From Bacteroidales bacterium (GTDB lineage Bacteria; Bacteroidota; Bacteroidia; Bacteroidales; JAIOZK01): DNA of 64,000 nucleotides. The notes under the pieces are model-generated. The model saw only the letters and a program-made list of their open reading frames with translations, ran no database searches and was not told the DNA's origin. The stretch is taken from NCBI GenBank assembly GCA_021738625.1, contig JAIPBS010000005.1:51478-115477 (forward strand), in the 5' to 3' direction. Shown here piece by piece: positions 4,568 through 45,213 of this stretch. Numbering within the stretch: position 1 is the first letter of the stretch; each line of letters starts with the position of its first letter. The position numbers and the translations under genes were made by a program.

Positions 4568-4894
4568 TGATGTACAGAATCATATTGATTTATACTGATT
4601 CGGAACAGGTTTGTAATGATTGACCTCCTGCTCCAATCGGTATAACTGAACCTAACAGAAAAATATTTTATATTCATAGTAAGATTCAGTATAAACAAGA
4701 AGTGTAAAAATAATAAAAATACACAGTATGCCAAATAATCATAAAGCTCTGCAGGCTTTCCGATGGCACTGTTAAGAGCGATTTACTGCAATTTACAATT
4801 CATTTTAGGATAAGTGGAAGTTTAAGATAAAGAAACTGCCAATCAGTTTAGATTAAACAAAATAGAAAGTTATTCCTTATGGATCGGTTGTCTT

Positions 4895-5485
4895 TTACTT
4901 TTTCGCATTTTGATTTTGCCGGCTTTGAAGAATTTTCATAAGAAGAAGGCTTTTCTCTTGCACGTCGTTTGTGATGCCATAAGCTGAAATTGTTGCACCG
5001 GATATGGCATCTATCTGTTTACCGACTTCAAGTTTTTCCATAGGGCTATGGCCAATGAATTGCTTAAGCCATCCATTTGCCCCTATTTCGTATCCATGGG
5101 TGGCCTGATAGTTGAAAACCTTTACAAGTTTTATCTGACATTCTTTATTAAAAAGAATAAAATAATCGAAATATTCATGCGTGTTTTCCGCTTCATTTGG
5201 CTTTGATGACAAAGAACATCCCCCTGCGCGACAACTGTAAACCCGCCCAACATACAGATAACCTAAAGACTGCTTTTTTGGCTCAGCGTTTAATAACTCA
5301 AAAAACCGGCCGTTAAGATGCAATGAATGGTCTGCATTATTTGTTTGCAAATCGATACATTTTCCCTCCAAACCATTCAGCTTTTTAATCGCTCGGCCAA
5401 TACTTCGATGGTTATAGTTTATGCTGTCCTGGGCCGGAAGCAATAAACTTGAAATCATAATGAAGGTCAATAAAACACTTTTCAT
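4895..5485 (-). CDS. Exported FMN-binding domain protein with a flavinylation-type motif
   Basis: 196 aa with an N-terminal signal peptide (MKSVLLTFIMISSLLLPAQ). The C-terminal QIDAISGATISAYGI matches the D-x-x-[ST]-G-A-[ST] FMN_bind motif seen in NqrC and RnfG. Confidence 0.7.
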   Translation of the reverse strand: MKSVLLTFIMISSLLLPAQDSINYNHRSIGRAIKKLNGLEGKCIDLQTNNADHSLHLNGRFFELLNAEPKKQSLGYLYVGRVYSCRAGGCSLSSKPNEAENTHEYFDYFILFNKECQIKLVKVFNYQATHGYEIGANGWLKQFIGHSPMEKLEVGKQIDAISGATISAYGITNDVQEKSLLLMKILQSRQNQNAKK

Positions 5486-6969: not shown

Positions 6970-9900
6970 TTATTCTGTCTTATCAGGATACCCGGGCTTT
7001 TCGGGTAACTCTTCATGATCTTCAAGTTCTTCCAGGATCACTTCTATTGCCATGTTGAGCTGCTGGTCAATCCCCTGATATTCCATTGCAGGATCATTCA
7101 CTACACGGATATCCGGTTCCACTCCGTAGCCCTCAATAACCCAGCGTTTTCCTTCCACATCAAAGGGTGCGAATTCTGGTTTTCTCAGGCTTCCACCGTC
7201 AATAAAGGGCATGGAACCCCGGATGCCGACAACACCGCCCCACGATCGAACTCCGATGACCGGTCCGATCTCAAGCTTTTTGAATTGGTAGGGGAACAGA
7301 TCCCCGTCGGAGGCGGAGTACATATCGATTAGGAGTACTTTCGGTCCTATATGCATTTCGCCCGGCTTGGTTGTAGTTGTTTTGGTGTTCCTGGCAGATC
7401 CAAGTAGTACGAGCTCCCTGTTCAATCGTTCGATAAGCATCGGGCTAACGTTTCCGCCGCCGTTGCCGCGATCATCAATGATCAGTCCTTTTTTCCGAAG
7501 CTGGGGATAAAAGTATTTTACAAACTGATTCAGTCCCCCGGGACCCATATCCGGTACGTGAATATAACCTACCTGCCCGTTAGTGGCTTCTTCAACTTTC
7601 TTGATGTTGTTCCTGACCCAGTTGAAATAATAGATACCGCTTTCATCATCCGTCGGGATCACAATCACTTTGCGGCTGCCCTCCATTTCAGGTTCATTGT
7701 TGATGATAAGCTCTACCTGTTCGCCTGCCTCATCGAGCAATGCCCGGTAAATGTTTTCCATATTGTTTACCGGCTTGCCGTTAACCGCCAGGATATAGTC
7801 TCCTTCGAAAATATCCACTCCGATTTCAGTTAGAGGTGACCGCGTATTGTCCATCCAATTTTCACCTTCCAGGATTTTAGTGATCCTGTAATAGCCGGAT
7901 TCATCTCTTTCCACTTCAGCCCCCAGCAGGCCCACTTTGATCCTTTCGGGCTTTGGCCGGTCACCCCCGCCAACATAGGCATGCCCCACATTCAACTCGC
8001 CTATCAATTCACCGATCACATAGTTGAGATCATTGCGGTTTTCAACATGATCAACCAAAGGGGCATATTTCTCGTGCATGGCTTCCCAGTCGACGCCATG
8101 CATGTTTGGATCGTAAAAGAAATCGCGCATTTGCCGCCAGGACTCATTGTATATTTGCGTCCATTCCTCACGATAGTTCACCCAAACCTTCATATTATCC
8201 AGGTCGAGGTGGTCGGAAACCTTGATGGGGGAGGAGGGCAGATCGATTACGGTATATTTCCCGCTTTTTGACAAAAGCATTTTTTTATGATCAGTTGATA
8301 TCGTATAGTTGCCGTAGTCACCCAAATCAGTTTCTTTTTTCTTTTCTAAATCAAAGAGTCTGAGCGAAGAAGATTTATCACTGCTTTTTCTTCTTACATA
8401 GTAGACGTTTTTATCAACAACATTGATTCTCCCGTAATTGGCGGCTTCGATCGGCAGTACTTCAATCCGGTCGAATATACCGTCAAATTCTATACCCTTG
8501 TCAGCACCGTTCTCTTCCTCTGTTTCTTCTGTCTTGTTTTCATCGGTTTCAACTTCATCATTCTCAGGACGCAGCGGATTAGGGACGGATTTACGCAGGG
8601 TAAGGAAGTAAACTTTTTCCATATCCCTATAGGCATGATTCCATTCTGTATGGCTGTATATGGGGTTGAAATCCCTGGATGAAGTAAAGAAAAGGTAATT
8701 TCCGTCAGAACCGAATACCGGGTTGCCTGAATTGTACCATTGATCGGTGACCGGTTTTTTTTCTTCTGATTCGGTATCATATATCCAGATCCTGGTGGAG
8801 GCTTTGTTTTTGGGAATGGTGTATGTAATCCACTTGCTGTCGGGGGACCAGTTGTACTGCCTGATCTCCCAATCTTCTGCCTGATCAACCTGAATGATTT
8901 TTTTTGTTTCTACATCTAAATATTGTAATCTGAGTTTTTTGTCGCTCCACAAAAGCTTTTTGCTGTCGGGCGACCAGATGGGATTGTATTTATAGGTATC
9001 GCTGTTTTTGGTAAGCTGCATAGGGGGTTCGCTGCCATCCTGTTTGATGATGTAAATTTCATCTTCCCCGGTACGATCCGAAATGAATGATATGAATTTT
9101 CCGTCCGGAGACCATTCAACATTCCTGTCATGTACGCCGGGGGTTTGAGTTAAATTTCGTATGATCCCTTTGTTTGCAGGCACTGTGAATACATCACCGC
9201 GTGCGCCGAAAACCACGCGTTTACCGTCCGGGGCAATGGCATGGGAGCTAATGTATTTGCTTGCGTCAACCAGTTCGTCACGTCCATGAATGAAGTCATT
9301 GGCAAAAAGTACCTCTATTTTGTAGGGCTTTTCTTCCTGGAGATCGAAACGATAAAGGTACCCACCATTTTCATAAATGATCTCCTGATCTCCAAGTGAA
9401 GGAAATTTTATATCGAAATTCGTGTAGTCGGTGAGTTTGCGGGTTTCCTTGCTGTTCAGGTCATACACAAAAAGATTCATGGTGCGGTCGCGATCTGAAA
9501 GATAATAGATCTTTTCACCATGCCACATTGGGAATATATCCTGGGCATCGTTGTTTGTGATGTTTTCCGTTTCGCTGTTTTCAAAATTAAAAATCCAGAT
9601 ATCGTCGGCCATCCCACCCCTGTAATACTTCCAGGTTCTGAACTCCCTGAAAACGCGATTGTAGGCCAATTTTTTCCTGTCGGGTGAATAGCTGCACCAA
9701 CTTCCCACGTTGAGTGGCAATTGATAGGGCAATCCACCTTCGACCGAAATACTGAAGAGCTGTCCTTTAAAGGCGTTGAAAGATTTCATTCTTGACCTAA
9801 AAACAATTTGCTCATTGTCTTTCCAGGTCATCACAATATTGTTCGGCCCCATCCGGTCGGAGATATCATCTCTGCTTAGTGTGGCTGTGTATGTTAGCCG

Positions 9901-20451: not shown

Positions 20452-21399
20452 TCATGCCCTGAAGTTATGAACATGTGAAAAGAGGGTGTAATCGTGAATA
20501 TTTTTGTTTAATTCTTTATATTTTGAATTAACATACATGTTTTCTCCCAGAATGCGCTTTTTATCACCAAAGATCTCATTGTAATGTTCAGTTATTTCCG
20601 TCTGTATTTCTTTACAGGGCAGTTCGATGCAAAACTCCGATCCTTTTCCAACGGTTGATTTCACCCAAATGCAACCCCCCATGCTCTCCAGAAGATTTTT
20701 TGAAATGGTCAAACCGATACCCAAGCCGTTATAATTTCTTCTGTATGAGTTTTCAATCTGGTTGAACATGCTGAATATTGCGTTCAGTTTACTCTGCGGA
20801 ATTCCTATGCCACTGTCTTTGACGTAAATTTTCACTTTGTTGTGTGTCAATGGTTCGTATCCTATTTCAATGTGGCCTTCCTCAGTGAATTTAATAGCAT
20901 TTTCAAGCAGATGTGAAACCACAATTGAAAGTTTTTCTCTATCTGTTTTTACTAAAACTTTTTTTTTATGATTTCTGGAAAACCTGATTTCAATATGCTT
21001 CTTTCCCACCTGGAATTTTTCCCGTTCATGATGTTTAACCACTTCATTCAAAATATCTTCAACAACACATTCGCATTCATTGATTTGTATCTTTTCTGTT
21101 TCTGTCTTTGCGGCCAGTATAAGGTTGTCTATCAGTTTAAGCAGGTTGAAACTGCTTTTATTAATGCCTTCAATAAAGGTTACCCGTTCTTCGTAAGTGA
21201 GATCAGCATCTTTAAGCAGGTTTGAAAACCCGAGAATGGCATTCATTGGCGTTCTGACCTCATGCGAAATATTTGATAAAAAAGAGGCTTTCAGGTTTTC
21301 AACTTCCTCACTCTTTTGCACGATCTCCTTTTGTAGCCTACCTACCTGTCTTTTAAGTCGTTCCAGTTCAGTACTCCTATGTTTAGCTCCTTCATCCAT
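20452..21399 (-). CDS. Soluble, sensor-less histidine kinase (coiled coil + HisKA + HATPase_c)
   Basis: 315 aa with no TM segment. The H-box is SHEVRTPMNAILGF, and the N and G boxes are LLENAIKFT, DSGIGIP and GLGIGLTISK. Confidence 0.85.
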   Translation of the reverse strand: MDEGAKHRSTELERLKRQVGRLQKEIVQKSEEVENLKASFLSNISHEVRTPMNAILGFSNLLKDADLTYEERVTFIEGINKSSFNLLKLIDNLILAAKTETEKIQINECECVVEDILNEVVKHHEREKFQVGKKHIEIRFSRNHKKKVLVKTDREKLSIVVSHLLENAIKFTEEGHIEIGYEPLTHNKVKIYVKDSGIGIPQSKLNAIFSMFNQIENSYRRNYNGLGIGLTISKNLLESMGGCIWVKSTVGKGSEFCIELPCKEIQTEITEHYNEIFGDKKRILGENMYVNSKYKELNKNIHDYTLFSHVHNFRA

Positions 21400-21428
21400 T
21401 CATAAGACAATTTAGATTCCGATACTTC

Positions 21429-21459
21429 TTAATTCCGCTTTACCCGAAAAGGTAACCCT
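21429..21459 (-). promoter_or_regulatory. Bipartite motif copy A (GGTTACCTTTT-N9-CGGAATTAA): candidate alternative-sigma promoter or operator upstream of the orphan kinase
   Basis: In gene orientation it reads AGGGTTACCTTTTCGGGTAAAGCGGAATTAAG and ends 29 nt before the ATG at 21399. The blocks and spacing are the same as in copies B and C. Confidence 0.5.
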
Positions 21460-21726
21460 AAAAACGTAACTTTTTTTGTCAGATCTTTTTTTTACGACAA
21501 AAAAATCAGAAATCCTGAATGTGGAAATCATCCTTTATGTCATTTATTTGTCTCAAATAAAGGCGATTAAGTTGTAAATTTGTTTTGGATATAAGCTGCA
21601 AAGGGATTGTTTAGGCGAGAAATCAAAAATTAACTTTCGTTTTGTATGTAACAAAACCCAATATTTTACGAAAAATAGAAGACAAAATGAAAGATTTGCA
21701 GATTTTTTAAAAAAAAATGCATTTTG

Positions 21727-21757
21727 AGGGTTACCTTTTAATAGAAAACGGAATTAA
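21727..21757 (+). promoter_or_regulatory. Bipartite motif copy B (GGTTACCTTTT-N9-CGGAATTAA) upstream of the T9SS cohesin/dockerin-like gene
   Basis: It reads GAGGGTTACCTTTTAATAGAAAACGGAATTAATG and ends 30 nt before the ATG at 21788. Confidence 0.5.
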
Positions 21758-21787
21758 TGAACGCACAATAGTAAACATACAAAAATT

Positions 21788-23032
21788 ATGAAAACGAAAA
21801 TCAGACTTTATTTTGCTGTATTTGCTTGTATCTTTCTAACAAGCAGCGTATTGGCACAGACAGACCTAAGTGGCTCTGTTGATTATCACAACGATCCTGA
21901 TATCCCGATCGAAGATGTTTTGGTAAAGCTAGTTGATAACAGTGGTACTGAGATCGACAGTTGTTTGACCGACACAAATGGTGATTATATCTTTTATGAT
22001 GTGGTTGACGGGACTTATCAACTCATCTGCAACACTGAAATCGATCCGGGGGGAATCGATTTGGCCGACTCTTTCCTGATATTTTTGCATTTGTGCAATT
22101 TTTACACACTCAATCCGATAGAGTTTCTTGCTGCGGATGTGAATGGAAGCGGAACTGTTACATGGAGCGATTACTGGACCATCTTGATTGGTTGGCTTGT
22201 GAATGGGTATCCCTTCCCGGCTGGTGAATGGGTATTCCAGGAACCAACCGTAGTGATCAATTCGGCCACCAAAGATTCGTTGGTGCAAGGTGTCGGCGGT
22301 TCCAGTACGGGAGATGTTGATGGATCATTCATGCCTGGAACCAAACCCGAACCGCTGATTAATATTTACCAGGGATCACAGCAATTGGTTACAACCAGTG
22401 AGCAGGTAGAAATACCGGTTACCATTGATTGGCCTCATGCCGTTGGCGGCTTTGCGCTTACATTGAATTATCCGGGGCATCTTTTCGAGTTGACGGGCAT
22501 AAAGAGCGATATAAAGAGTTTCAATTATGAAATTTTTGATAATTATGTGAAACTATCCTGGATGGATACAAAATTCTCCAATACCACCTTTGATGATAAA
22601 CCACTGTTTTTCCTTGTTGGCCGCACAACCAATCATTTGGTCAATGGGCAGAAAGTGACTTTTACGGCGGGCATTCAAAGCCATCTGATGGATGGAAAAG
22701 GAAATATACTGGAATCCGTAACCATGAGTATGCCTTCACTTGAGGGTGAACAAGTAAGCACTTTATTCGGACAGGTATATCCCAATCCCGTAAAATCGGA
22801 ATTTACGGTTGATTATAAGCTCGAGAAGGAAGGACAGGTTAAAGTTGGTTTATATAATCAGAACGGACAGCTTGTTGCATTGCTTCTTGACGAGAACAAA
22901 AATGCAGGGGTACACAACTTTAAAGCAACTATAGATTCCTACGATTTAAATGCAGGGGTGTATATCCTGGTAATGGAAGCTCCGGGAAATAAAATCCAGA
23001 AAAATATACAACAACTGATTGTGTCAAAATAG
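21788..23032 (+). CDS. T9SS-secreted protein with CarboxypepD_reg-like, dockerin-like and cohesin-like segments
   Basis: 414 aa with a signal peptide. The dockerin-like Ca-binding loop is AADVNGSGTVTWSDY. The cohesin-like segment is VEIPVTIDWPHAVGGFALTLNYPGHLFELTGI. The C-terminal T9SS sorting domain is VYPNPVKSEFTVDYKLEKEGQVKVGLYNQNGQLV. Confidence 0.8.
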   Translation: MKTKIRLYFAVFACIFLTSSVLAQTDLSGSVDYHNDPDIPIEDVLVKLVDNSGTEIDSCLTDTNGDYIFYDVVDGTYQLICNTEIDPGGIDLADSFLIFLHLCNFYTLNPIEFLAADVNGSGTVTWSDYWTILIGWLVNGYPFPAGEWVFQEPTVVINSATKDSLVQGVGGSSTGDVDGSFMPGTKPEPLINIYQGSQQLVTTSEQVEIPVTIDWPHAVGGFALTLNYPGHLFELTGIKSDIKSFNYEIFDNYVKLSWMDTKFSNTTFDDKPLFFLVGRTTNHLVNGQKVTFTAGIQSHLMDGKGNILESVTMSMPSLEGEQVSTLFGQVYPNPVKSEFTVDYKLEKEGQVKVGLYNQNGQLVALLLDENKNAGVHNFKATIDSYDLNAGVYILVMEAPGNKIQKNIQQLIVSK

Positions 23033-23060
23033 AGTTTAATTTTCGTTTTCATCAACTAAA

Positions 23061-23098
23061 AAAAGGGATACATAATTAGGTATCCCTTTTTTTTGTTT
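23061..23098 (+). terminator. Rho-independent terminator after the T9SS protein gene
   Basis: The stem pairs gggatac (23065-23071) with gtatccc (23080-23086). Flanking A- and T-runs extend the stem, and it is followed by ttttttttgttttttt. Confidence 0.65.
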
Positions 23099-23134: not shown

Positions 23135-26100
23135 TTGCATATTCGTAGTGTGAAAAAAATAACAAGGTTGAGGAGTAATTGCAAGAAAGCTAGGTGGTTT
23201 ATAAACTTCCTTATCACAATAGTAACCTTTTACGCACTTCTTCAGATAGATATTGCGTCTGGTCAAGCTATTAAAAGTCCGGATCAAGCATCTTTATACT
23301 TTGAGAAGGGTACCAGAGCTTATAATCTATCAAAATATGATAGTGCATCATATTATTATAGAAGTGCAGCAAATCTTTATGATGTACTTGGAAATGATGT
23401 TGAATATTTACGTTCACTCATAAATGTTGCGAATTGTCAGCGTGCAATAGGTGAGTTTTCATCCGCCCTTAATATACTGGTTACTGTTGAAGAATTCCCT
23501 GAGTTCAACTTGAATAATCATCATCTGCTGAAATCTGAGCTGTTGCATGTTAAAGGTAGTATCTTTAGCAACATTGGTAAGGCTAGTGAGGGTGTCGAAT
23601 TGCTCACTGAATCTATTGCATTGAGGGAACAATATAGTGATGCAAATGATTCATTGCTTGCATATTCATACAATAACCTTGGTAACAATTATTTTTATGA
23701 AGGTAACCGTGAAAAGGCCCTTGAGAGTTATAAGAAAGCTCTTGAAGTAGCGTTAACCTCAAAAAGAAGCATCATAGATCCTGACATTGCACTTTACTAT
23801 CAGAACATTGGAATAATTCACGCTTTAAGAGGTGATTTCAAAATTACAACTGAGTATTTTTTGAAGAACCTATCAATCAATAAGCAAATTTATGGTTCTG
23901 ATCACCCAAGTCTTGGAGTTACCTATCTGAACATGGGACGTTTAAAATACCTTTTGCATGAGCTTGATGAGGCAAAACAATACCTTGATAAGGCAGATAC
24001 AATTTTCACGAAACATTTTGGTCCAAATTATTATGGTCTTGGTACAGTTTACATGAATATGGGAAATGTTTTTAATTCTCAAAACGATTACGAAAAAGCA
24101 CTGGAATACTATAAGAAAGCACAACGAATATATAACAAGCAACTTGATAAAAGACATCCCAATATCTACAAAATCGTAAACAATATTGGATCAATTTTAC
24201 TTAAAAAGAAAGAATTCAGCGCAGCATTGGAGAATTATATGAAAAGCTATTCAGCCACCAAAGATCCAATATCAAAAACATTAATTGCCAGGAACCTTGG
24301 AAACATATTCCATGAGCTTGGCGATAGCGGACGTGCTGAGTATTATTATAAGCAATCGATAATACAAGCTGTTAGTAAATTACAGGATAATCATTACGAA
24401 ACCGGCCACAGCTATATTGCATACAGTAAGTTTTGCCTTCAAAACGGAAAATTAGATACGGGTTTGCAATATGCCGCAAAAGCCTATCGCATCTTTCTTG
24501 AAAACTTCGGCTTCAAAAATCCAAATGTTTCCGAAGCCTTAAGTACCATGGGGGAATTCTACTATCAAGAAGGAGGTTATGCAAAAGCCCTCAATCATTT
24601 TCAGCAGGCATTGATCAGCAATGCTTATGGTTTTACCGACACCAATGTATACCATAATCCTAAAGTAGACAGCATCATACTTGAATCCCAATTGCTTGAA
24701 CCACTGATTGGAAAAGCCAAATCTTTCAGAAAGCTTTCTCAAAGCAGGGGGGGCGATCTGAATGCATTAAAGGCCAGCCTCGAAAGTTGTAAATTGGCTT
24801 CCAGGATTGTGGATAGGATACGCCTGACCCTGAGGCAGGAAAGTAAACTGTATTTCTCCGGTGATGTGGATAATATTTATGCCAATGCGATCTATGTGGG
24901 ATATGATTTATATCAGCTTTCAGGAGATCCCGAATATCTCGAACAATCTTTTCTTTTTTCTGAAAAAAGCAGATTTTCGGTTTTGCTTTCAGGTTTACGC
25001 GACATTGAAGCAGTGGAATTTGGGGGGATACCGGATTCACTAAAACAACTCGAAAAAGAACTTAAAGAGAAAATCAGCTTGAATGAGAAATGGATATATG
25101 AAGAAAAGCAATCAATCGGGCAAGACCAGGATAAGATTAGCAACTGGGAATCGAATCTCTTTATGCTGCATACCCGTTACGATAGTCTGATCAATACCTT
25201 TGAAAAGGACTATGAAGATTATTACAGGTTGAAGTATGATACCGAAATTGCTGATGTTAAAACAATCAGAAAACAATTGCGATCCGATCAGGCCATACTT
25301 GAGTACTTTATAATCGATACCGTACTTTTTACTTATTTGATTGATCCTTCGGGTATCAGTTTAATAAAAACGCCTGTGGGTGAGGATTTTAACTATCACC
25401 TTGAAAACCTGAGACAATTCTACCAGGCCAGCATCTTAAATCATACCAAAGATGTATACTGGGGATATATCGAATCGGCTTCAGTTCTTTACAGCTATTT
25501 GATCAAACCCCTTCAGCAAAATTTATCGAAAAAAAGCCTGATCATCATTCCCGACGGTCAACTGGGTTACATCCCCTTTGAAAGTCTCATTTCCAATGTG
25601 CCCCAGGGCAAAAAACTCGATTACCGTAACCTTGATTATTTGCTAAATAAGCATCCTGTAAGTTATAGCTATTCGGCAACAATTCTTTTCGATAAGCTTA
25701 AGCGAAAAACCTTTAATGAGATGGTACTGGCCATGGCGCCTGTTTATCAAGGTGATAATATTCGAAACCAGCGGCTTAGCGAGGGAGATGACTTTATACT
25801 TGGCCCGATTTTTCATTCAGAATATGAGGTATCGGAAATTGACAATATGTTTGATGGGGTGGTACTAAAGGAAGAAAATGCAACAGAAGAAAATTTCAAG
25901 ATATTATCCGATGATTTCAGCATTTTACATCTTTCAATGCACACCATTATTGATGATGACAACCCCATGTATTCCAAGCTGATATTCTCCGAATATTCTG
26001 ATACTTCCTCCACTGAAGATGGATTCCTGCACACCTATGAATTATATAATTTGCAACTGAAAGCCCAGTTGGCTGTGCTGAGCGCCTGCAATACAGGTAA

Positions 26101-26476
26101 GGGGAGATTACACGAAAGTGAAGGTGTTATCAATCTGGCCAGGGGTTTTACATATGCAGGAGTGCCGAGCATTGTTATGACCCTGTGGGAAGTAGAAGAT
26201 AAAGCAGGCGCTGAGATCATGCTGAATTTTTATGACAACCTAAGAAAAGGCTTGCAAAAAGATGAGGCCCTCAGGCAGGCCAAGATGGATTACTTGAAAC
26301 AAAAGCCGCAATTCAGGGCACATCCTTATTTTTGGTCGGCTTACGTATTGATTGGAAATACAGATCCGATTGTTGAACCAAAGTGGAGAACACCTGCCTT
26401 GCTGGCAGGTTTCGGGTTTGTTTTGATTGTGGTTGTTTTTGCATTGCAAAACCAACGCAGACGTCAAAAAAAATAA
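23135..26476 (+). CDS. Envelope-anchored TPR-CHAT protein (tetratricopeptide repeats + caspase-like CHAT protease domain)
   Basis: 1113-aa ORF. The TTG start at 23135 is uncertain, and the in-frame GTG at 23150 (VKKITRL) is an equally good start. The N-terminal hydrophobic anchor or signal is WFINFLITIVTFYALLQIDIASGQ. About 500 aa of TPR-like repeats follow (YNNLGNNYFYEGNREKALESYKKAL and similar). The CHAT His is in LHLSMHT (codon 25940-25942) and the Cys is in VLSACNTG (codon 26087-26089). The C-terminal TM helix LLAGFGFVLIVVVFAL is followed by QNQRRRQKK. Confidence 0.9.
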   Translation: MHIRSVKKITRLRSNCKKARWFINFLITIVTFYALLQIDIASGQAIKSPDQASLYFEKGTRAYNLSKYDSASYYYRSAANLYDVLGNDVEYLRSLINVANCQRAIGEFSSALNILVTVEEFPEFNLNNHHLLKSELLHVKGSIFSNIGKASEGVELLTESIALREQYSDANDSLLAYSYNNLGNNYFYEGNREKALESYKKALEVALTSKRSIIDPDIALYYQNIGIIHALRGDFKITTEYFLKNLSINKQIYGSDHPSLGVTYLNMGRLKYLLHELDEAKQYLDKADTIFTKHFGPNYYGLGTVYMNMGNVFNSQNDYEKALEYYKKAQRIYNKQLDKRHPNIYKIVNNIGSILLKKKEFSAALENYMKSYSATKDPISKTLIARNLGNIFHELGDSGRAEYYYKQSIIQAVSKLQDNHYETGHSYIAYSKFCLQNGKLDTGLQYAAKAYRIFLENFGFKNPNVSEALSTMGEFYYQEGGYAKALNHFQQALISNAYGFTDTNVYHNPKVDSIILESQLLEPLIGKAKSFRKLSQSRGGDLNALKASLESCKLASRIVDRIRLTLRQESKLYFSGDVDNIYANAIYVGYDLYQLSGDPEYLEQSFLFSEKSRFSVLLSGLRDIEAVEFGGIPDSLKQLEKELKEKISLNEKWIYEEKQSIGQDQDKISNWESNLFMLHTRYDSLINTFEKDYEDYYRLKYDTEIADVKTIRKQLRSDQAILEYFIIDTVLFTYLIDPSGISLIKTPVGEDFNYHLENLRQFYQASILNHTKDVYWGYIESASVLYSYLIKPLQQNLSKKSLIIIPDGQLGYIPFESLISNVPQGKKLDYRNLDYLLNKHPVSYSYSATILFDKLKRKTFNEMVLAMAPVYQGDNIRNQRLSEGDDFILGPIFHSEYEVSEIDNMFDGVVLKEENATEENFKILSDDFSILHLSMHTIIDDDNPMYSKLIFSEYSDTSSTEDGFLHTYELYNLQLKAQLAVLSACNTGKGRLHESEGVINLARGFTYAGVPSIVMTLWEVEDKAGAEIMLNFYDNLRKGLQKDEALRQAKMDYLKQKPQFRAHPYFWSAYVLIGNTDPIVEPKWRTPALLAGFGFVLIVVVFALQNQRRRQKK

Positions 26477-26507
26477 CCATCAACCTCCGAAGAGGTATAA
26501 TGGTTAT
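26465..26507 (-). terminator. Candidate terminator for the sigma/anti-sigma operon (overlaps the CHAT stop codon)
   Basis: ataaccat (26473-26480) pairs with atggttat (26500-26507). An inner stem pairs cctc with gagg around a cgaa loop. The plus-strand A-run at 26466-26473 becomes a U-tract on the minus-strand RNA. Confidence 0.4.
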
Positions 26508-26532
26508 TATGAACTCCCAAGACAAATTTTTG

Positions 26533-27279
26533 CTATAAATTTTTCAATATTTTTTTCGCGTCGGTTTGATAAATATTGTCGCTGTTGGCTATTCTGGTCA
26601 GCAATTCTTTTGCTTTTTCATATTCATCTATTTTAAGATAGGAAAGACCCAGATACCATTCGGCTTGCTCAACAAAAAGGTTTTCCTGGTGCGAAATAAG
26701 CTCATTAAATAACTCAATGGCTTTTTTAGAATTGCCTGTTTCCATATAGCTCAAACCCATGTAAAACTTTGCCAGATTGTTCTGCGGTTCCTGGCTGAAC
26801 AGTTCGATCGCACTTTCGTAATTTTTATCCTGATAAGCCATCATCGCCTCCTTCAATGTAATATCTTCGGTATTTCCGCCTGAACGTACGATGGTTATTG
26901 CTTCTTCTGGGTTATAATAATTGGAGTAGAGAGAATTGTTGCTAACATGATCACCTTTGCTGAAAAGCAAAATGCCACCAATGATCAGTATGATGGATGC
27001 GGCAGCTGCAATACTACCAAACAAATACCGGTTTGGAGGGAACATGCGGATGATTTTATTGCGGCTGGTCCTTTGTTTGGCCTGAATAGATTTTAACTCA
27101 TTGCGAAGCTTCATAATATCTTTTTCCAGCAAGGCCGCATTTATTTCCTTATGAAGGTTGACCTCTTTTCTGAACCATGGATTGTTGCTGAGCATCTTTT
27201 CAAACTCGCTCAGTTCGTTTCCTCTCAGGTCCTGGTTAAGGTAACGATCAATTAATTCAAGTGTACTTTTTGTTGTCAT
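26533..27279 (-). CDS. Single-pass anti-sigma-like protein with an extracytoplasmic TPR domain
   Basis: 248 aa with a cytoplasmic N-terminal region of about 85 aa. The TM helix is YLFGSIAAAASIILIIGGILLF. The C-terminal TPR-like repeats include YESAIELFSQ, AKFYMGLSYMETGNSKKAIELF and AEWYLGLSYLKIDEYEKAKELL. Its start overlaps the sigma gene stop by 4 nt, which suggests translational coupling. Confidence 0.6.
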   Translation of the reverse strand: MTTKSTLELIDRYLNQDLRGNELSEFEKMLSNNPWFRKEVNLHKEINAALLEKDIMKLRNELKSIQAKQRTSRNKIIRMFPPNRYLFGSIAAAASIILIIGGILLFSKGDHVSNNSLYSNYYNPEEAITIVRSGGNTEDITLKEAMMAYQDKNYESAIELFSQEPQNNLAKFYMGLSYMETGNSKKAIELFNELISHQENLFVEQAEWYLGLSYLKIDEYEKAKELLTRIANSDNIYQTDAKKILKNL

Positions 27280-27848
27280 GTCAATTCTGTATATTTTGGG
27301 TCCTTTTTTATGCTTTCAATCAGTCTTTCCTTGCACAGGTATTTCTTTTTCTTTGCGTATTTTTCACTTCCATACCCCATCTTGCTTGCGATTTCGCGAA
27401 GTGAATACTTTTCGAGTGTCAGTTCAAGAATTCTTTTACAATCGCTCTGCAGTCTGCTGAAATGCTTCTGAAAAAGTTTATACTTTTCGGATTTTTCATA
27501 AACTATTAAAAGATCGTCCTGCTCGAAATCGCTCACGTTTTCTTGTTCGGCCAGTTCATCAGGCCTGATCCTTTTCTTTTCGAGCTGTTTAAGCCAGAGC
27601 AATTTGCAAACTGAGTACAAATAAGTATTAAAAGAACAATTTTCAATTTCAAGTTCTCCCGCCTTTAACTTTCTGTAGATAACAATCAGGGCTTCCTGAT
27701 ATATATCCTCTGCATCATTTTGAGTCCCGCTGTTTGAAATTACCAGATACTTGATTTGATCATAGTAAGTCTGGTAAATATGTTCCAACACTACCGTGTG
27801 GTGCTCTCTGATGCCATCAAGTATTTCATCAACACTTAATTCCCTCAC
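27276..27848 (-). CDS. Sigma-70 family (ECF-like, regions 2 and 4) RNA polymerase sigma factor
   Basis: 190 aa with a GVG-free GTG start and an in-frame TGA two codons upstream. Region 2-like sequence is DAEDIYQEALIVIYRKL...FNTYLYSVCKLLWLKQLEKK. Region 4 HTH-like sequence is YSLREIASKMGYGSEKYAKKKKYLCKERL. Confidence 0.85.
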   Translation of the reverse strand: MRELSVDEILDGIREHHTVVLEHIYQTYYDQIKYLVISNSGTQNDAEDIYQEALIVIYRKLKAGELEIENCSFNTYLYSVCKLLWLKQLEKKRIRPDELAEQENVSDFEQDDLLIVYEKSEKYKLFQKHFSRLQSDCKRILELTLEKYSLREIASKMGYGSEKYAKKKKYLCKERLIESIKKDPKYTELT

Positions 27849-27858
27849 TTGTCATTGA

Positions 27859-27889
27859 TTAATTCTGATTTAACAAAAAAGGTAACCTC
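27859..27889 (-). promoter_or_regulatory. Bipartite motif copy C (GGTTACCTTTT-N9-CAGAATTAA) immediately upstream of the sigma factor gene
   Basis: In gene orientation it reads AGAGGTTACCTTTTTTGTTAAATCAGAATTAATC and ends 10 nt before the GTG at 27848. Confidence 0.5.
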
Positions 27890-28176
27890 TATTTTCTAAC
27901 TTTATTTAAACAATTTCATAACACCGGTTTTAAGGGTCTGATAAACAGGTTTTTGTGTTTTAAAAAAAACATGCTTCCAAAACTGTAAATAAGGTTTTAA
28001 CATGATCCCTTCATAACTGCTTCCAAAAATATACAAACTTTTCTAATATCAGCATTCAGTTGCTTAGAATTAAGACCTGCTTGCGAGCTGAACTATTTCA
28101 TAATTATTACGAGAAAATATCGAAATGGTTCAGTGAATTGAAAAAAAATTGTAAGTTAGCTATAAAGAATAAGACC

Positions 28177-40854: not shown

Positions 40855-43800
40855 TTAGTTATTGTACAGCCAAACCCGCAATAGGCTGATCAATTTGTCT
40901 GTATTCACGGGCTTGGCCAGATAGTCGTTTGCGCCTGCTGCGATGCATTTGGCCCGGTCTTCTTTCATGGCTTTGGCGGTAAGTGCTATGATTGGAAGCT
41001 TTTCAAACTTTTTCTGCTTGCGTATTTCCATCATGGCTTCATAACCATCCATTTCAGGCATCATAATATCCATGAGTACAAGATTGGTGTCGGGGTTGTT
41101 ATTGAGTTTTTCAACACCCTCCCGTCCGTTTTTTCCAATGATCACCTTCATGCCGTTTTCTTCAAGAACACTTGCAAGAGCGAATACATTTCGCATATCA
41201 TCATCCACGATAAGGACTTTTTTGCCCTTAAGGGTATCGGGTTTCCCCTGCAGTTTTTCAAGCATGCTTTGTTTGTCTTTCGGCATGTCTTTATGAACCT
41301 GATGCAAAAAGAGGGTGGCTTCGGACAACAATCTTTCAAAGGACCGGGCGCCCTTCAGGATGATGGAGTCGGCATATTTTTGAAGCTTTTCATTTTCTTC
41401 AGGAGAAAGATCCTGTCCGGTATAAATGATCACAGGCAGGTCATTTATTTTTTTGTCTCTCCTGATTTGTTCCAACAGATCAAAACCGCTGAGTTCTTTT
41501 AGTCCCAAATCGAGTATCAGGCACTCGAACCTTTGCTTTTTAAGCAGTTCAATTGCCTTTTCTCCTGAGTCAACCGATTTGATCTCAACATTTCCTTCAT
41601 CCAGCAATTTAACAATGCTTTTTCTCATAATGGGATCATCTTCAACTACAAGAGCTTTTTTAATGGGGCGGGAAATTACGTTTTCAAGCTTTTTAAATAC
41701 CTCTTCCAATTTGCCGTGATCAACGGGTTTGGTAAGGTATCCAATGGCGCCCATTTTCATGGCATCCAGGGATTTATCGGCTGCGGAGATAATGTGTACG
41801 GGAATATGCCGTGTTCTGGAATTCTCCTTTAGCCTTTTCATAACCTCATACCCATCGATTCCAGGTAATCCTATGTCGAGAATAATTGCCTCGGGTAGAT
41901 AATAATCGGCATAATGCAGGCCGGTTTCACCATCCAGCGCAATAAGCGCTTTGAAATTCTTTTCGTGCGATAACTCATACAGGACTTGACAGAAATTCAC
42001 ATCATCCTCAATGATCAGGATGTAATGATCTCCCTGGTTTATGTCGTCCTTGTCATCAATGATCTCATGGTACTTATCCTGTTTACCTTTTATTTTTTCC
42101 CGGGTTTTTTTACTGGCTACAGCTTTTGCTTCTTCGTTTTTATCAGGTTTGTATTGTTCAGCAGGTTCACCTGTTTTGTTGAAGTTTTCGGGCAAAATAA
42201 GGGTAAATGCAGAACCCATGTTTTCTTTACTTCTGGCGATCAGAGCTCCCTGCAAAAGTTCGGTGAATTTGCGTGAGATGGTTAATCCGAGCCCTGTTCC
42301 GCCAAATTTCCTGCTTGTTGTTCCATCGGCTTGTTTAAAGGCCTCGAAAATATACTCCAGCTTATCCTCAGGTATACCAATGCCTGTATCGATAACAGAA
42401 AAGGCGACCGAATCCTCTTTTTTAAGGTTGAAAATACCGCTCAACATATCATTATCCGGTCGACCGACACTCAATTTCACTTCTCCTTCTTTTGTGAATT
42501 TGACGGCATTGGATATCAGGTTTTTAAGTATTTGCATCAGCCGTTGTGAATCCGTTCGTAATACCTTGGGGACGTCTTTTTTCTGTTCAAAATTCAACTC
42601 AAGCCCTTTTTCATTGGTCAGAGGTTTGAAGGTGCCCATTACAAATGATTTGACCTCACTGAGGTAAGTGTCCTCAATCTCAAGTTCTAATTTGCCGCTT
42701 TCAACCTTGGAAAGATCCAGAATTTCATTGATAAGTTCAAGCAAGTCGGATCCGGATGTGTTGATCGTTTTGGCAAATTGTATCTCCTTTTGGTCGAGAT
42801 GATCTTTCCTGTTTTCGGAAAGCAGTTGCGACAGAACAAGTATGCTGTTAAGCGGCGTACGCAGTTCATGCGACATATTGGCCAGAAATTCGGATTTATA
42901 TTTGCTGGCCTGTTCCAGGTCCCTGGCCTTTATCTCAATTTCCTCCCTGGCCTTTTTCAGCTCTTCATTTTTCTTTCGGATGTTGTCGCGTTCCAGTTCC
43001 AGGTCGTTGGTTCTTTCTTCAAGCTCCTCATTGGTTACACGCAGTTCTTCCTGTTGTGATTTCAGATTTTCTTCCGAGAGCTTGAGCGCCTTGGTTTGTT
43101 CTTCGAGTTCCTCATTGGCCTGCCGCAGTTCTTCCTGCTGCACCTGCAATTCATTTGCCTGTTTCTGTGTTTGTTTCAGCAAGCGCTGAACACGAGTGTG
43201 GACCTGTATGGTGTTGATTGCAACGGCAATGTTGTCAAGGCAACTGCTAAAAAAGTCGAGCTGCAATTCGCTGAATTCTTTCAAACTCCCAATCTGAATA
43301 ACACCCTTGGTCTCATTTTCGAAGATCACTGGGGCTGTGATCAGGTGTAAGGGTTTTCTTTCATCAATGCCGATGTTGAGCTTAGGTGTTATCTCTGCGG
43401 GTAGGTTAAAAGCCATTTGTTTCTGATCCTTGGCTACCTGACCGATAATTCCCTGACCCACTTCAAATTCGGTGAATTTATTTTGTATATCCTTGTATGC
43501 GTATGTAGCCTCAAGTTTTAACTTCCCATCCTCATATATATATAGCAATCCGATCTGTGCTTCCAGGTAATGAATCAGGAAGTTTATGATCTCATCGGTG
43601 AGTTTCCTGATGTTTTTTAAGCCGCTGAGTATGCTTTCCAGCTGGTTCATTCCACTTTTAAACCAATCCTGCTGCTGCACTTCAGTGGATGTTTCCCGCA
43701 GGGTTTTCGTCATTTTATAAAGTGCGATCCCCAGGGTGTCTTTGTCGCTGCGGGGGGTTATGTTGGTTGAATAATCCCCTTTGGCGATGCGGTTGGCCTG

Positions 43801-45213
43801 ATCGACAACATTTCTGAAACTCTCAACCATCTGGTTCATGGATTTCCCCAAAACATCTTCTTTACTTCTTATCATAACGGTTTTGGAATAATCACCATAG
43901 GCGGCCGATTCACTTACCTTTGCGTAGGATTGAAGTGATTCTACCAAATTGTTGAAGGTGTCCACCATTTCGCCCACCTCGTTTTTGGGGGCTTTCACTT
44001 TTTTACTGACCAGTTCTCCCGATCCCACCTGCTTGGCCCATGCTGAAAGTTTTTTGATGGGGGTGACGATTTTTTTGGTTACCAGCACCGAAATAAAAAA
44101 AACGATAATGGCAGTCAGGATAAAAGATATTTTGGCAATATCAGATAGCTGTTGTGCATAGCCGTATGCTTCAGTTTGATGTATTTCTTCAAGCAGGGCC
44201 CATTCAACGCCAAATTTTTCAAGATAATCCAGATGCCGATAAATACCAAGCACATATTTACCTTTGAAGTTAGGGTAGATAGAGATTAGCTCACGGTTTT
44301 GTTCCTGATCTCTCAGGTATTGTTCATCGTCCTTGTTCCGGATGTACTTTTGCCATTCCAGTGTTTTCGAGGTTCGCGCTTCCTGTTGCAGGATGGTCGT
44401 TTCATCATCAAAACGGGTGGCCGAGCGCAATCTCAGATCGGGTCCAACAAGATAAGCCTCTCCGGTCTCACCCAGTCCCACATCATCCTGTATGATGTTG
44501 TTGATGCGCTCCATGGTGATCTGTATGGCCAGTATGCCGATCATCTGATTTTGATCATCAAGTATCGGATGTCCGAAAAAGCCTGCAATCCGGTTGTTGG
44601 AGGGGGCATAATGAGCAAGATCGGAAAACAGAGGTTTTCTCGCTTCGATTATTTTCCTGCCGGTTTCGGCAAAGGGCGTATCTGAATATTTTCCCCGGAA
44701 AAGGTTTGTGCCCAGATCGTTTTGTTTCTTTAACGAGAAAAGTATATCACCGCGATTGCTGATGAAATAAATGTTATAATATCCCAGTTTTCGGGTCATT
44801 GCTTGCAGATCGTTGCGGCGGGTTTTGGCAATGCGCTCCCACTCATTGCTTGATGTAAACTCCTGCAGGTTCATGTCAGACTTTCTGTAGGCCTCTTCAA
44901 GCTGTTCCAAAAATCTGGTGTTGGATTGCAGGTTTGCCTGTATATCAAGATAATTAGCAATCTCTTTGAAGTAGGTGTTCAGGTACTCTACCCGAAGTTG
45001 GGAGGTGGTTATCAACGATTTTTCGGCCACGACATTTAATCCGGCATATGCAAAATAATAGTTAATAATACTCATCAGCAAAAGCGGGATCACCGAAATG
45101 CCGAGAAACCAGATCAGAAGAGATTTACCTACGCCAATGTATAATTTGGCTTTTAACCATTCTCTAAACCTGTCGAAACTAGTTTGTTTGTTGTTATTAC
45201 GATGTTCATTCAT
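40855..45213 (-). CDS. Giant hybrid sensor histidine kinase: Cache-like periplasmic domain, HAMP linkers, GAF-like domain, long coiled coil, HisKA/HATPase and three receiver domains
   Basis: 1452 aa. Two TM helices flank an extracytoplasmic domain of about 300 aa. The HAMP-like segment is TPIKKLSAWAKQVGSGEL...EVGEMVDTFNNLVESL. The H-box is MSHELRTPLN (His codon 42868-42870), and GGTGLGLTISRKF marks the HATPase. Three REC domains follow (ILIIEDD..., ALVVEDDP..., VLIVDDDMRN...MDIMMPEMDG). Confidence 0.9.
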   Translation of the reverse strand: MNEHRNNNKQTSFDRFREWLKAKLYIGVGKSLLIWFLGISVIPLLLMSIINYYFAYAGLNVVAEKSLITTSQLRVEYLNTYFKEIANYLDIQANLQSNTRFLEQLEEAYRKSDMNLQEFTSSNEWERIAKTRRNDLQAMTRKLGYYNIYFISNRGDILFSLKKQNDLGTNLFRGKYSDTPFAETGRKIIEARKPLFSDLAHYAPSNNRIAGFFGHPILDDQNQMIGILAIQITMERINNIIQDDVGLGETGEAYLVGPDLRLRSATRFDDETTILQQEARTSKTLEWQKYIRNKDDEQYLRDQEQNRELISIYPNFKGKYVLGIYRHLDYLEKFGVEWALLEEIHQTEAYGYAQQLSDIAKISFILTAIIVFFISVLVTKKIVTPIKKLSAWAKQVGSGELVSKKVKAPKNEVGEMVDTFNNLVESLQSYAKVSESAAYGDYSKTVMIRSKEDVLGKSMNQMVESFRNVVDQANRIAKGDYSTNITPRSDKDTLGIALYKMTKTLRETSTEVQQQDWFKSGMNQLESILSGLKNIRKLTDEIINFLIHYLEAQIGLLYIYEDGKLKLEATYAYKDIQNKFTEFEVGQGIIGQVAKDQKQMAFNLPAEITPKLNIGIDERKPLHLITAPVIFENETKGVIQIGSLKEFSELQLDFFSSCLDNIAVAINTIQVHTRVQRLLKQTQKQANELQVQQEELRQANEELEEQTKALKLSEENLKSQQEELRVTNEELEERTNDLELERDNIRKKNEELKKAREEIEIKARDLEQASKYKSEFLANMSHELRTPLNSILVLSQLLSENRKDHLDQKEIQFAKTINTSGSDLLELINEILDLSKVESGKLELEIEDTYLSEVKSFVMGTFKPLTNEKGLELNFEQKKDVPKVLRTDSQRLMQILKNLISNAVKFTKEGEVKLSVGRPDNDMLSGIFNLKKEDSVAFSVIDTGIGIPEDKLEYIFEAFKQADGTTSRKFGGTGLGLTISRKFTELLQGALIARSKENMGSAFTLILPENFNKTGEPAEQYKPDKNEEAKAVASKKTREKIKGKQDKYHEIIDDKDDINQGDHYILIIEDDVNFCQVLYELSHEKNFKALIALDGETGLHYADYYLPEAIILDIGLPGIDGYEVMKRLKENSRTRHIPVHIISAADKSLDAMKMGAIGYLTKPVDHGKLEEVFKKLENVISRPIKKALVVEDDPIMRKSIVKLLDEGNVEIKSVDSGEKAIELLKKQRFECLILDLGLKELSGFDLLEQIRRDKKINDLPVIIYTGQDLSPEENEKLQKYADSIILKGARSFERLLSEATLFLHQVHKDMPKDKQSMLEKLQGKPDTLKGKKVLIVDDDMRNVFALASVLEENGMKVIIGKNGREGVEKLNNNPDTNLVLMDIMMPEMDGYEAMMEIRKQKKFEKLPIIALTAKAMKEDRAKCIAAGANDYLAKPVNTDKLISLLRVWLYNN
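43009..43140 (-). repeat. Intragenic duplicated 48-nt unit encoding QQEELR(QA/VT)NEELEE(Q/R)T within the kinase coiled coil
   Basis: Unit 1 is at 43093-43140 and unit 2 at 43009-43056. By hand count they are 38/48 nt and 13/16 aa identical, separated by 36 nt. Confidence 0.6.

Follow-up and report, generated by a model that had tools for sequence, protein, structure and literature searches.

A TPR-CHAT protease gene linked to an ECF sigma factor and an anti-sigma-like gene in Bacteroidota: a candidate split module for envelope signalling

In Myxococcus, DdvA combines within one polypeptide a zinc anti-sigma domain, a transmembrane (TM) helix and a periplasmic tetratricopeptide repeat (TPR)-CHAT region (PMC11506125). 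[quoted passage not shown] In type III-E (Craspase) systems, which are associated with clustered regularly interspaced short palindromic repeats (CRISPR), the TPR-CHAT protein Csx29 cleaves in trans Csx30, the inhibitor of CASP-sigma, a sigma factor of the extracytoplasmic function (ECF) type (PMC10028731). Here we analyze a locus where a TPR-CHAT protein, an ECF sigma factor and an anti-sigma-like protein are encoded by three separate genes. The locus spans positions 23,135 to 27,848 of a 64,000-nucleotide stretch of Bacteroidales DNA (assembly GCA_021738625.1, contig JAIPBS010000005.1, positions 51,478 to 115,477), and by the window we mean this whole stretch. The three genes very probably form one functional module. 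Our tentative reading is that this is a three-component envelope signalling module, widespread in Bacteroidota, in which the CHAT protein cleaves the anti-sigma factor and frees the ECF sigma factor.

To our knowledge, no signalling systems of Bacteroidota outnumber the ECF sigma/anti-sigma pairs, hardly any of which has a known trigger or site-1 protease. Literature searches for CHAT together with ECF, anti-sigma, Bacteroidota, type IX secretion or periplasmic location returned the DdvA and Craspase papers only, and the split module is undescribed there. The main text of the ECF reclassification paper mentions no CHAT, TPR anti-sigmas or peptidases, although the group description in the ECF Hub might still note a CHAT neighbour.

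Linkage of the three genes across Bacteroidota

In the window, the TPR-CHAT gene (23135..26476, plus strand) converges with two coupled genes of the minus strand. The stop codon of the sigma factor gene (27276..27848) overlaps in an ATGA the start codon of the gene encoding the 248-amino-acid anti-sigma-like protein (26533..27279), whose end is separated by 56 bp from that of the TPR-CHAT gene. The sequence bears out the description given in an earlier note on this DNA, which had reported the convergent gap, the overlap and a single-pass TPR protein of this length. We scanned one genome per species and retained the 80 best-scoring TPR-CHAT loci. In this and in the reverse scan described below, the 80 loci are those with the best scores rather than a random sample, genes are crude open reading frame (ORF) calls, and many metagenome contigs are short. 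The TPR-CHAT loci come from Bacteroidales, Prolixibacteraceae, Saprospiraceae/Lewinellaceae, Cytophagales, Flavobacteriaceae, Sphingobacteriales and one Balneolaceae. Searches within them with phmmer, using the sigma and the anti-sigma sequences of the window, matched 39 and 42 ORFs, respectively. A coupled sigma/anti-sigma pair was found within 3 kb of the CHAT gene in 19 of the 41 loci with at least 3 kb of flanking sequence on both sides, and within 300 nucleotides in 22 out of 79 loci. Since Bacteroidetes genomes carry 22.5 ECFs each (PMC7826278), the chance of finding any ECF within 3 kb is 2.4-4.8%, and the observed proportion corresponds to a binomial P-value of approximately 1.6e-14. 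When all neighbours in the 80 loci were clustered in an unbiased manner, the widespread families were the anti-sigma-like proteins (37 loci) and the sigma factors (36 loci). These were followed by proteins with a type IX secretion system (T9SS) tail (7 loci), and all other families were found in at most 4 loci. Sigma and anti-sigma genes are paired as in the window in more than 30 loci.

The association is detectable also in the reverse direction. We scanned metagenomes with a narrower sigma alignment (A4), retained again the 80 best-scoring loci, and counted CHAT genes with a hidden Markov model of the CHAT domain only. A CHAT-domain gene lies within 3 kb in 12 of the 18 sigma loci with at least 3 kb of flank on both sides. 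The arrangement of CHAT relative to the pair can be convergent (as in the window), divergent or co-directional. Operon-like junctions with gaps of -4 to 32 nucleotides also occur, including distances of 7 and 17 nucleotides between anti-sigma and CHAT, and three loci where the CHAT stop codon overlaps the sigma start codon by 4 nucleotides. The earlier note had named beforehand the lack of conserved linkage as an outcome that would refute its proposal, and the linkage was instead recovered from both sides and in all orientations. In 27 linked trios, the divergence of the anti-sigma correlates with that of the CHAT domain (r = 0.43), of the full-length CHAT protein (r = 0.54) and of the sigma factor (r = 0.34), and none of 2000 permutations reached any of these values (Mantel test). 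The anti-sigma is followed by CHAT at least as closely as by the sigma factor.

Several variants of the layout were observed. Two or three TPR-CHAT paralogues stand in tandem in L037 (4776-16180), L064 (4923-12871), L043 (8629-21122), L022, L040 and L051, and in the first three of these the paralogues lie behind a single sigma/anti-sigma pair. L064 is from an Aquimarina strain and has the gene order sigma, anti-sigma, CHAT, CHAT. Some genomes hold several separate modules, such as L021 and L043 on one contig. Together, tandem and multiple modules suggest diversified sensors that feed related switches. In a Prolixibacteraceae-like subclade, the sigma gene is convergent with CHAT and nothing lies between the two (L011, L014, L088-L090, L117, L123, L124 and L143). 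Proteins of 438-512 amino acids, some with C-terminal TPRs and one with no Pfam match, occupy the anti-sigma position or follow a gene for a double-glycine peptide (see below) in L085 (2771-4267), L096 (8572-10062), L100 (1463-2941), L091 (3172-4488, minus strand), L094 (493-1809, minus strand) and L088 (9652-11190). Among loci of the sister samples SRR7048225 and SRR7048224, the block of L002/L003 stands beside T9SS/TonB genes and the sigma/anti-sigma pair of L164 beside an Exo_endo_phos_3 gene and a TamB-like gene.

Predicted architecture of the three proteins

The TPR-CHAT ORF encodes 1,113 amino acids from the first in-frame start, a TTG at 23135. This start is ambiguous: a database protein of 1,102 amino acids (P0001), 100% identical to the window protein over 1,102 amino acids, fits a TTG at 23168. 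Pfam CHAT (PF12770) covers residues 781-1075 (25475..26359, plus strand) with E = 2.7e-58 and 198.2 bits against a cut-off of 24, over profile positions 3-289 out of 289. Residues ~50-500 are matched five times by TPR_12, as well as by TPR_1, TPR_10 and other TPR models, and form a TPR superhelix (residues 49-495, 23279..24619) that is connected to the CHAT domain through a helical linker (residues 517-714, 24683..25276). The catalytic His936 (codon 25940..25942, within LHLSMHT) and Cys985 (codon 26087..26089, within VLSACNTG) are invariant across 28 aligned homologues (alignment A1), with identity down to 24%, and the motifs of the dyad were found in essentially all 86 homologues from the loci. 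ORF length, CHAT domain and motif positions are as the earlier note had given them. Mean pairwise identity is 38% in the CHAT domain, 30% in the helical linker and 23-26% in the TPR region. The invariance of the dyad and of its surrounding motifs, within the most conserved region of the protein, argues that catalysis by the CHAT domain is under selection. A TPR region that is the most variable part of the protein, joined to a CHAT domain that is the most conserved, is also what would be expected of a diversifying sensor on a fixed enzyme, and the superhelix is presumed to be the sensor or partner-binding region.

We modelled the protein with AlphaFold2 from 28 sequences (predicted local distance difference test, pLDDT, 85; predicted template modelling score, pTM, 0.80). 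The model is composed of an N-terminal helix, ~21 TPR-like helix pairs (residues 49-495), the helical linker (residues 517-714), an alpha/beta CHAT domain (residues 719-1074) and a C-terminal helix (residues 1085-1112). Its best full-length matches in Foldseek are human separase (top, E ~6e-16), Csx29 (8d9f_A, E = 2.4e-13, TMt 0.56) and DdvA (8rot_A, E = 1.2e-12, TMt 0.46), so that the modelled fold appears to match all three known TPR-CHAT classes. A phmmer search of the PDB with the sequence of the CHAT domain returned no match. Judging from its domains and motifs, the window protein is a member of the TPR-CHAT proteases, with predicted endopeptidase activity.

The protein carries hydrophobic segments at both ends, in agreement with the earlier note. 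The N-terminal segment (residues 22-45, FINFLITIVTFYALLQIDIASGQA, 23198..23269, plus strand) has only ~20 basic residues ahead of it, and could be either a signal peptide, with possible cleavage between ASG and Q, or a membrane anchor with its N-terminus inside. The C-terminal TM helix (residues 1084-1107), which reaches a Kyte-Doolittle maximum of 2.48 and is a helix also in the model, is followed by the basic tail RRRQKK (26384..26473 for helix and tail). Both elements are kept in ~70 of the 86 homologues. We read the topology from hydropathy profiles, the positive-inside rule and the helices of the AlphaFold models. With basic residues on the outer flanks of both hydrophobic segments, the topology predicted most simply is that of a periplasmic CHAT body which the C-terminal helix, perhaps together with an uncleaved N-terminal anchor, tethers to the inner membrane. 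As the CHAT domain ends ~9 residues before the membrane helix, the active site would lie at the membrane surface.

The 248-amino-acid protein (alignments A2 and A7) is predicted to cross the membrane once. All on the minus strand, its sequence comprises a helical N-terminal domain that is predicted to be cytoplasmic (residues 1-70, 27070-27279), a TM helix (residues 86-107, 26959-27024), a conserved juxtamembrane linker (residues 113-137, 26869-26943) and a three-repeat TPR domain that is predicted to be periplasmic (residues 138-247, 26539-26868). The family shares the N-terminal consensus IxxYLxGxLxxxExxxFExxLxxDxxLxxEV, an AA motif in the TM segment and an invariant Trp in the three-repeat TPR domain. 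The juxtamembrane motif L-(Y/F)-x-x-Y-(Y/F)-x-P...R-(S/G) includes Arg132 (codon 26884..26886), a candidate cleavage or recognition site, and Arg is found at this position in 25 of 33 sequences (A2) and in 28 of 45 (A7). In the AlphaFold2 model (pLDDT 80), confident helices at residues 4-14, 20-32 and 34-50 and a fourth helix are followed by a disordered tether, the TM helix, a short helix (residues 114-121) and a very confident TPR domain, while residues 122-137, including Arg132, are non-helical and of lower confidence. The CHAT body and the TPR domain of the 248-amino-acid protein are thus predicted to share the extracytoplasmic side, as the proposal of the earlier note required. The predicted anchoring of the two proteins is opposite, with the N-terminus of the 248-amino-acid protein and the C-terminus of the CHAT protein inside, which would bring the CHAT domain and the 113-137 linker into one membrane-proximal layer.

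Gene position, translational coupling to the sigma gene and weak domain matches lead us to consider this protein as anti-sigma-like, and we infer that it binds the sigma factor. Pfam searches restricted to the N-terminal 55-100 residues of the family ranked zf-HC2 first (matched by 10 of 27 members, with a best E of 9.4e-5), and RseA_N and RskA_N were matched by one member each. The RslA structure (3hug_B) matched the N-terminal domain of the family with E = 0.44, and two NCBIfam anti-sigma models matched the window protein with E = 2.6e-4 and 4e-3, both under their cut-offs. A whole-protein profile searched against the PDB was discarded because TPR proteins dominate its matches, and it returned no independent structural support for an anti-sigma domain. 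Homologues are labelled in public records as 'tetratricopeptide repeat protein', 'TolA-binding protein' or 'hypothetical'.

The sigma factor gene encodes 190 amino acids from a GTG start. The product matches TIGR02937 (sigma70-ECF) over residues 21-160 with 52.6 bits against a cut-off of 42.9, and Sigma70_r2 with 28.4 bits against 24. Its closest solved relatives, in a profile that covers both the sigma-2 and the sigma-4 domain, are AlgU, SigW and RpoE, all of which are freed by regulated proteolysis. Two cysteines of the sigma-4 region (DCxxIL...CxxxL), C137 (27438-27440) and C172 (27333-27335, both minus strand), are nearly invariant in alignments A3 and A4. Two such conserved cysteines are unusual among ECF sigmas, and a redox or metal role is possible.

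Promoter-like motif and neighbouring genes

We searched the upstream regions of sigma genes, 112 after removal of redundancy, for enriched k-mers. TACCTTTT is present in 28 of them versus 0.8 expected, and anchored alignment extends it to G(G/T)(G/A)TTACCTTTT-N11-GA(A/T)T(A/T)A, which can be read as GGTTAC-N16-GAATTA. The motif has the two-box layout of ECF promoters and is conserved ahead of this sigma family throughout Bacteroidota. In many cases only ~10 nucleotides are left between its end and the sigma start codon, so that leaders would be very short. The window contains five exact copies of TTACCTTTT versus 1.06 expected, and three of these copies share the whole extended motif, with 27.5-30.8 bits in a position weight matrix (PWM). 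They lie upstream of the sigma operon (AGAGGTTACCTTTTTTGTTAAATCAGAATTAAT, 27858..27890, minus strand, 27.5 bits), of a gene for a T9SS-tail protein (21726..21758, plus strand, 30.8 bits, with extended identity to the sigma site) and of a histidine kinase gene (21428..21460, minus strand, 28.7 bits), which agrees with the motif-marked output genes put forward by the earlier note. Written out over these three copies, the element is (A/G)GGGTTACCTTTT-N10/11-(C)GGAATTAA. The two other matches, at 8690 and 42083, lie within long ORFs, lack the flanking bases and were set aside as chance occurrences.

The training set of the PWM consisted of sites that precede sigma genes, so that sigma counts are partly circular while those of other gene classes are independent; as a null, 3.8 Mb of shuffled sequence contained 3 matches of at least 16 bits. 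Across ~160 loci, matches of at least 18 bits were found upstream of 36 sigma genes, 10 T9SS-tail genes and 3 histidine kinase genes. They were also found upstream of ORFs of 34 and 42-47 amino acids with double-glycine leaders (7 loci) and of short transcripts that resemble small RNAs (sRNAs) and end in a terminator (7 loci). Apart from the window, the motif precedes T9SS-tail genes in 10-11 loci and the orthologous kinase gene in L001, L002 and L013. In L002 it is kept before both the T9SS-tail and the kinase gene, while the sigma gene is elsewhere in the genome, as would suit a trans-acting factor. Of 99 CHAT genes, none is preceded by the motif within 250 nucleotides, as compared to 35 of 114 sigma genes (at least 18 bits), so that CHAT appears to stand upstream in the pathway and not among its direct outputs. 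ECF sigmas commonly autoregulate, and from this habit we infer that the window sigma recognizes the motif.

The T9SS-tail gene (21788..23032, plus strand, 414 amino acids, Pfam Por_Secre_tail and SdrD_B) stands directly upstream of CHAT in the window. Its predicted product has an N-terminal immunoglobulin-like domain of the SdrD_B/CarboxypepD_reg type, and a stretch, DVNGSGTVTWSDYW, which we take to have the look of a dockerin or calcium loop. An intrinsic-terminator-like hairpin, with a 14-bp stem and a T run, separates it from CHAT (23058..23093, plus strand). In all 16 loci that hold both genes, the T9SS-tail homologue is just upstream of CHAT on the same strand, with gaps down to 17 nucleotides, which makes this protein (400-420 amino acids in homologues) a fourth component in the Bacteroidales-type subclade. 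The histidine kinase gene (20452..21399, minus strand, 315 amino acids, Pfam HisKA and HATPase_c) encodes a soluble protein in which no TM helix was seen. Its position is conserved in L001, L002 and L165, and it is probably a member of the regulon in close relatives.

In other lineages the motif precedes different genes. The double-glycine ORFs of 34-47 amino acids were located in L009 (~1350-1528, minus strand), L010 (~9700-9878, minus), L088 (9327-9510, plus), L100 (5954-6140, plus), L084 (<126, minus), L091 (~4800-4956, minus) and L094 (~2110-2269, minus), always immediately upstream of the CHAT gene and divergent from it. Examples are leaders that end in EELSLVKGG and EELATIKGG, followed by KVQDAYCDLN and YGIPVPIIITE, respectively. 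With cores of 10-18 residues, the products look more like signalling peptides than bacteriocins, and there is no dedicated peptide-exporter gene beside these loci. Candidate sRNAs of a first type were found in L085 (~1700-1782), L095 (~470-550), L096 (~7625-7707), L097 (~2265-2344) and L103 (~3720-3796), all on the minus strand, and of a second type in L093 (3116-3200) and L148 (3707-3790), both on the plus strand. They measure ~70-85 nucleotides and are composed of a 5' hairpin, the conserved single-stranded AACCAUUAAAUCA and an intrinsic terminator, with folding z-scores down to -4.2; neither they nor the window had a match in Rfam. These motif-linked non-coding transcripts are candidates for sigma-dependent sRNAs, reminiscent of those that depend on sigma-E in enterobacteria.

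A direct repeat with core TGCTTCCAAAA (TTTTGGAAGCA on the minus strand) is present in two copies at 27972-28003 and 28018-28049, spaced by 46 nucleotides. It lies ~85-160 nucleotides upstream of the motif that precedes the sigma gene, between this gene and a divergent Exo_endo_phos_3 gene. It might be a regulator binding site; as a regulon motif it was rejected, as it is not enriched elsewhere in the window. A 50-nucleotide direct repeat (80% identity, 84-nucleotide spacing) at 43007-43140, inside a 1,452-amino-acid ORF (40855-45213, minus strand), is probably an internal protein repeat unrelated to the CHAT module. The 64-kb window contains no CRISPR-like multi-copy repeat array, and the PADLOC matches of all its 35 ORFs include no Cas family and no defence-system context, the CHAT protein receiving a generic TPR match. 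Repeat search and PADLOC thus uphold the absence of cas genes and CRISPR arrays that the earlier note had reported. In Pfam, the window appears as housekeeping, ordinary chromosomal DNA, with TsaD, TamB, a tRNA methyltransferase and metabolic enzymes.

Proposed mechanism, alternatives and comparison with known systems

The most economical reading of the module would be a split version of the DdvA logic. At rest, the anti-sigma would hold the sigma factor at the membrane. The variable TPR superhelix of the CHAT protein may sense an envelope or extracellular cue, possibly jointly with the TPR domain of the anti-sigma. The CHAT domain, placed on the membrane surface by the C-terminal anchor, would then act as site-1 protease and cut the juxtamembrane linker of the anti-sigma, with Arg132 as a candidate site. 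A site-2 protease of the RseP type and cytoplasmic proteases would subsequently free the sigma factor. From GGTTAC-N16-GAATTA, the latter would transcribe its own operon, the gene of the T9SS-secreted protein upstream of CHAT and the histidine kinase gene; in other lineages it would drive double-glycine-leader peptides or small RNAs instead. An elaboration that we deem improbable has CHAT gated by the product of the module itself, T9SS cargo or double-glycine peptide, which the periplasmic TPR sensor would bind before the anti-sigma is cut. DegS, which senses the C-termini of unassembled outer-membrane proteins, offers a likeness. If true, the module would be a peptide autoinduction (quorum-like) circuit of Bacteroidota or a surveillance of type IX secretion, with sRNAs as a further output arm.

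Several observations weigh against the proposed mechanism. The linkage is facultative, as about half of the CHAT loci and one third of the sigma loci have no partner nearby. In a split lineage, whose CHAT orthologue is 56% identical, a block of Trx, histidine kinase, T9SS-tail and CHAT genes (L002/L003) lies apart from one composed of sigma, anti-sigma, Exo_endo_phos_3 and TamB-like genes (L164). In some loci the sigma gene adjoins CHAT with no anti-sigma of 250 amino acids between them, or with proteins of 440-510 amino acids in that place. The correlated divergence of CHAT and anti-sigma shows co-inheritance and not contact, since shared phylogeny confounds it. For the 248-amino-acid protein, position and architecture fit an anti-sigma and domain matches are weak: the family alignment has no conserved Cys or His at zinc-ligand positions, the window protein itself falls below the zf-HC2 threshold, and Foldseek matched the TPR part alone (YbgF/CpoB-like and BamD-like modules), with no match for the N-terminal domain. 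Recognition of the motif by the window sigma is read from position. For truncated DdvA, RseP-dependent degradation was shown, whereas cleavage by CHAT was not demonstrated (PMC11506125). Within the Bacteroidales subclade, the T9SS-tail gene with its motif invariably precedes CHAT, so that read-through could make it partly sigma-dependent, and this fixed order possibly reflects a functional tie to the secreted protein rather than to the anti-sigma.

Such a tie is the core of an alternative that we consider unlikely, in which CHAT acts on or with an exported product, the T9SS-tail protein or the double-glycine peptide, and processes, matures, retains or degrades it in the periplasm, while the sigma/anti-sigma pair is the local regulator of a secretion cassette, triggered by another protease. 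The invariable position of the T9SS-tail gene in the 16 loci, the motif-driven peptide gene divergent from CHAT in seven others, and the fact that TPR domains typically bind peptides or protein termini would all suit it. However, the T9SS-tail neighbour is confined to ~7-16 loci of one subclade, as compared to 36-37 of 80 loci and several orders for sigma/anti-sigma; CHAT is fused in operons to anti-sigma or sigma in lineages with no exported-product gene between them, and its divergence tracks that of the anti-sigma. It is improbable, in our view, that CHAT is a non-cleaving partner of the anti-sigma, either a co-receptor or an RseB-like shield from another site-1 protease, whose proteolysis serves itself or turnover. 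Linkage and same-side topology would suit any stable complex, and TPR modules on both proteins suit protein-protein contact. In addition, catalytic mutants of DdvA have no phenotype in unperturbed cells, and its bulky TPR-CHAT region blocks RseP (PMC11506125). Against such a role stand the invariance of the dyad and its motifs in very divergent homologues and the rank of CHAT as the most conserved domain.

We give a low probability also to CHAT being an output of the sigma regulon, as an envelope quality-control or attack protease outside the sensing step. CHAT follows the motif-driven T9SS-tail gene in the window and relatives, and in some loci it belongs to sigma/anti-sigma operons, which would be autoregulated; both positions are compatible with this role. 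Yet none of the 99 CHAT genes has the motif directly upstream, the strong terminator-like hairpin parts CHAT from the T9SS-tail gene in the window, and ECF outputs are not usually kept beside their regulator in every orientation across a phylum. Hardly credible is adjacency without function, in which close relatives share local gene order: the gene order of L001 (87% identity) and L165 (a 52% identical relative) indeed simply follows that of the window for more than 15 kb, but the association spans Bacteroidales, Saprospiraceae, Cytophagales, Flavobacteriales and others, with different flanks and in all orientations, and departs from the ECF density with P ~1e-14.

Under the tentative reading of CHAT as the protease that frees the sigma factor, sigma/anti-sigma pairs gain a candidate trigger, namely a protease of caspase fold that stays next to one family of such pairs throughout the phylum. 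The theme of sigma release by TPR-CHAT proteins, known from type III-E CRISPR and proposed for DdvA, would reach ordinary chromosomal DNA that carries no defence genes. Protease and substrate, being separate proteins, would be easier to study than in DdvA. The module also provides a better annotation for the partner now labelled as a TPR or TolA-binding protein, and its conserved motif predicts a regulon with secreted proteins, double-glycine peptides and candidate small RNAs among its members.

The architecture of helical repeats and a caspase-like CHAT domain is common to separase and to stand-alone CHAT proteases such as the cyanobacterial HetF, which in contrast are cytoplasmic or nuclear, act on unrelated substrates and have no membrane anchors or linkage to sigma/anti-sigma genes. 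The regulated proteolysis systems RseA/DegS/RseP-sigma-E, RsiW/PrsW/RasP-sigma-W and MucA/AlgW-AlgU include the nearest solved relatives of the window sigma factor. They also share with the window a translationally coupled, downstream, single-pass anti-sigma or anti-sigma-like protein with a cytoplasmic N-terminal and an extracytoplasmic C-terminal domain, and a membrane-anchored extracytoplasmic protease; in the window, topology and protease are predicted, and the latter is encoded beside the pair. Known site-1 proteases are serine or metalloproteases (DegS and AlgW, with PDZ domains, and PrsW) and are usually not encoded beside the sigma factor, while the window candidate belongs to the cysteine proteases of caspase fold, carries a large TPR sensor and is syntenic with the pair.

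The earlier note had likened the locus to Craspase, and this holds in part. Csx29 is among the best structural matches, and cleavage in trans by a TPR-CHAT protease of a separately encoded protein that inhibits the ECF-type sigma factor of the same locus is shown for Csx29 and proposed for the window. Craspase is nevertheless cytoplasmic, RNA-guided, CRISPR-associated and activated by target RNA through Cas7-11, whereas the window has no Cas7-11, CRISPR array or Csx30/31, its protease is predicted to be extracytoplasmic and membrane-anchored, and its inhibitor resembles a classical single-pass anti-sigma. The locus is therefore not a Craspase system, and the closest precedent is DdvA-DdvS of Myxococcus, which partly anticipated the concept of the earlier note. 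In both, an ECF sigma factor is co-encoded with a membrane anti-sigma, in the window an anti-sigma-like protein, and with a TPR-CHAT region that keeps the His/Cys dyad and is extracytoplasmic, by prediction in the window, and a site-1 role of CHAT ahead of intramembrane cleavage of the RseP type is proposed. DdvA differs in having a CHCC zinc anti-sigma domain and in the proposal that it cuts itself in trans within a dimer, whereas the window encodes a separate 248-amino-acid protein with no zinc ligands and, in a gene of its own, a protease composed of signal or anchor, TPR-CHAT and C-terminal TM helix. Moreover, DdvS controls a defence island of CRISPR and cyclic-oligonucleotide-based antiphage signalling (CBASS) genes, while the window has no defence genes, and the outputs predicted beside its module are a T9SS-secreted protein and a kinase of the histidine type. 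Having neither the single polypeptide nor the zinc domain, the window protein is outside the DdvA fusion family. The recurrence of this gene set across Bacteroidota suggests an undescribed signalling switch, in which the protease would free the sigma factor.

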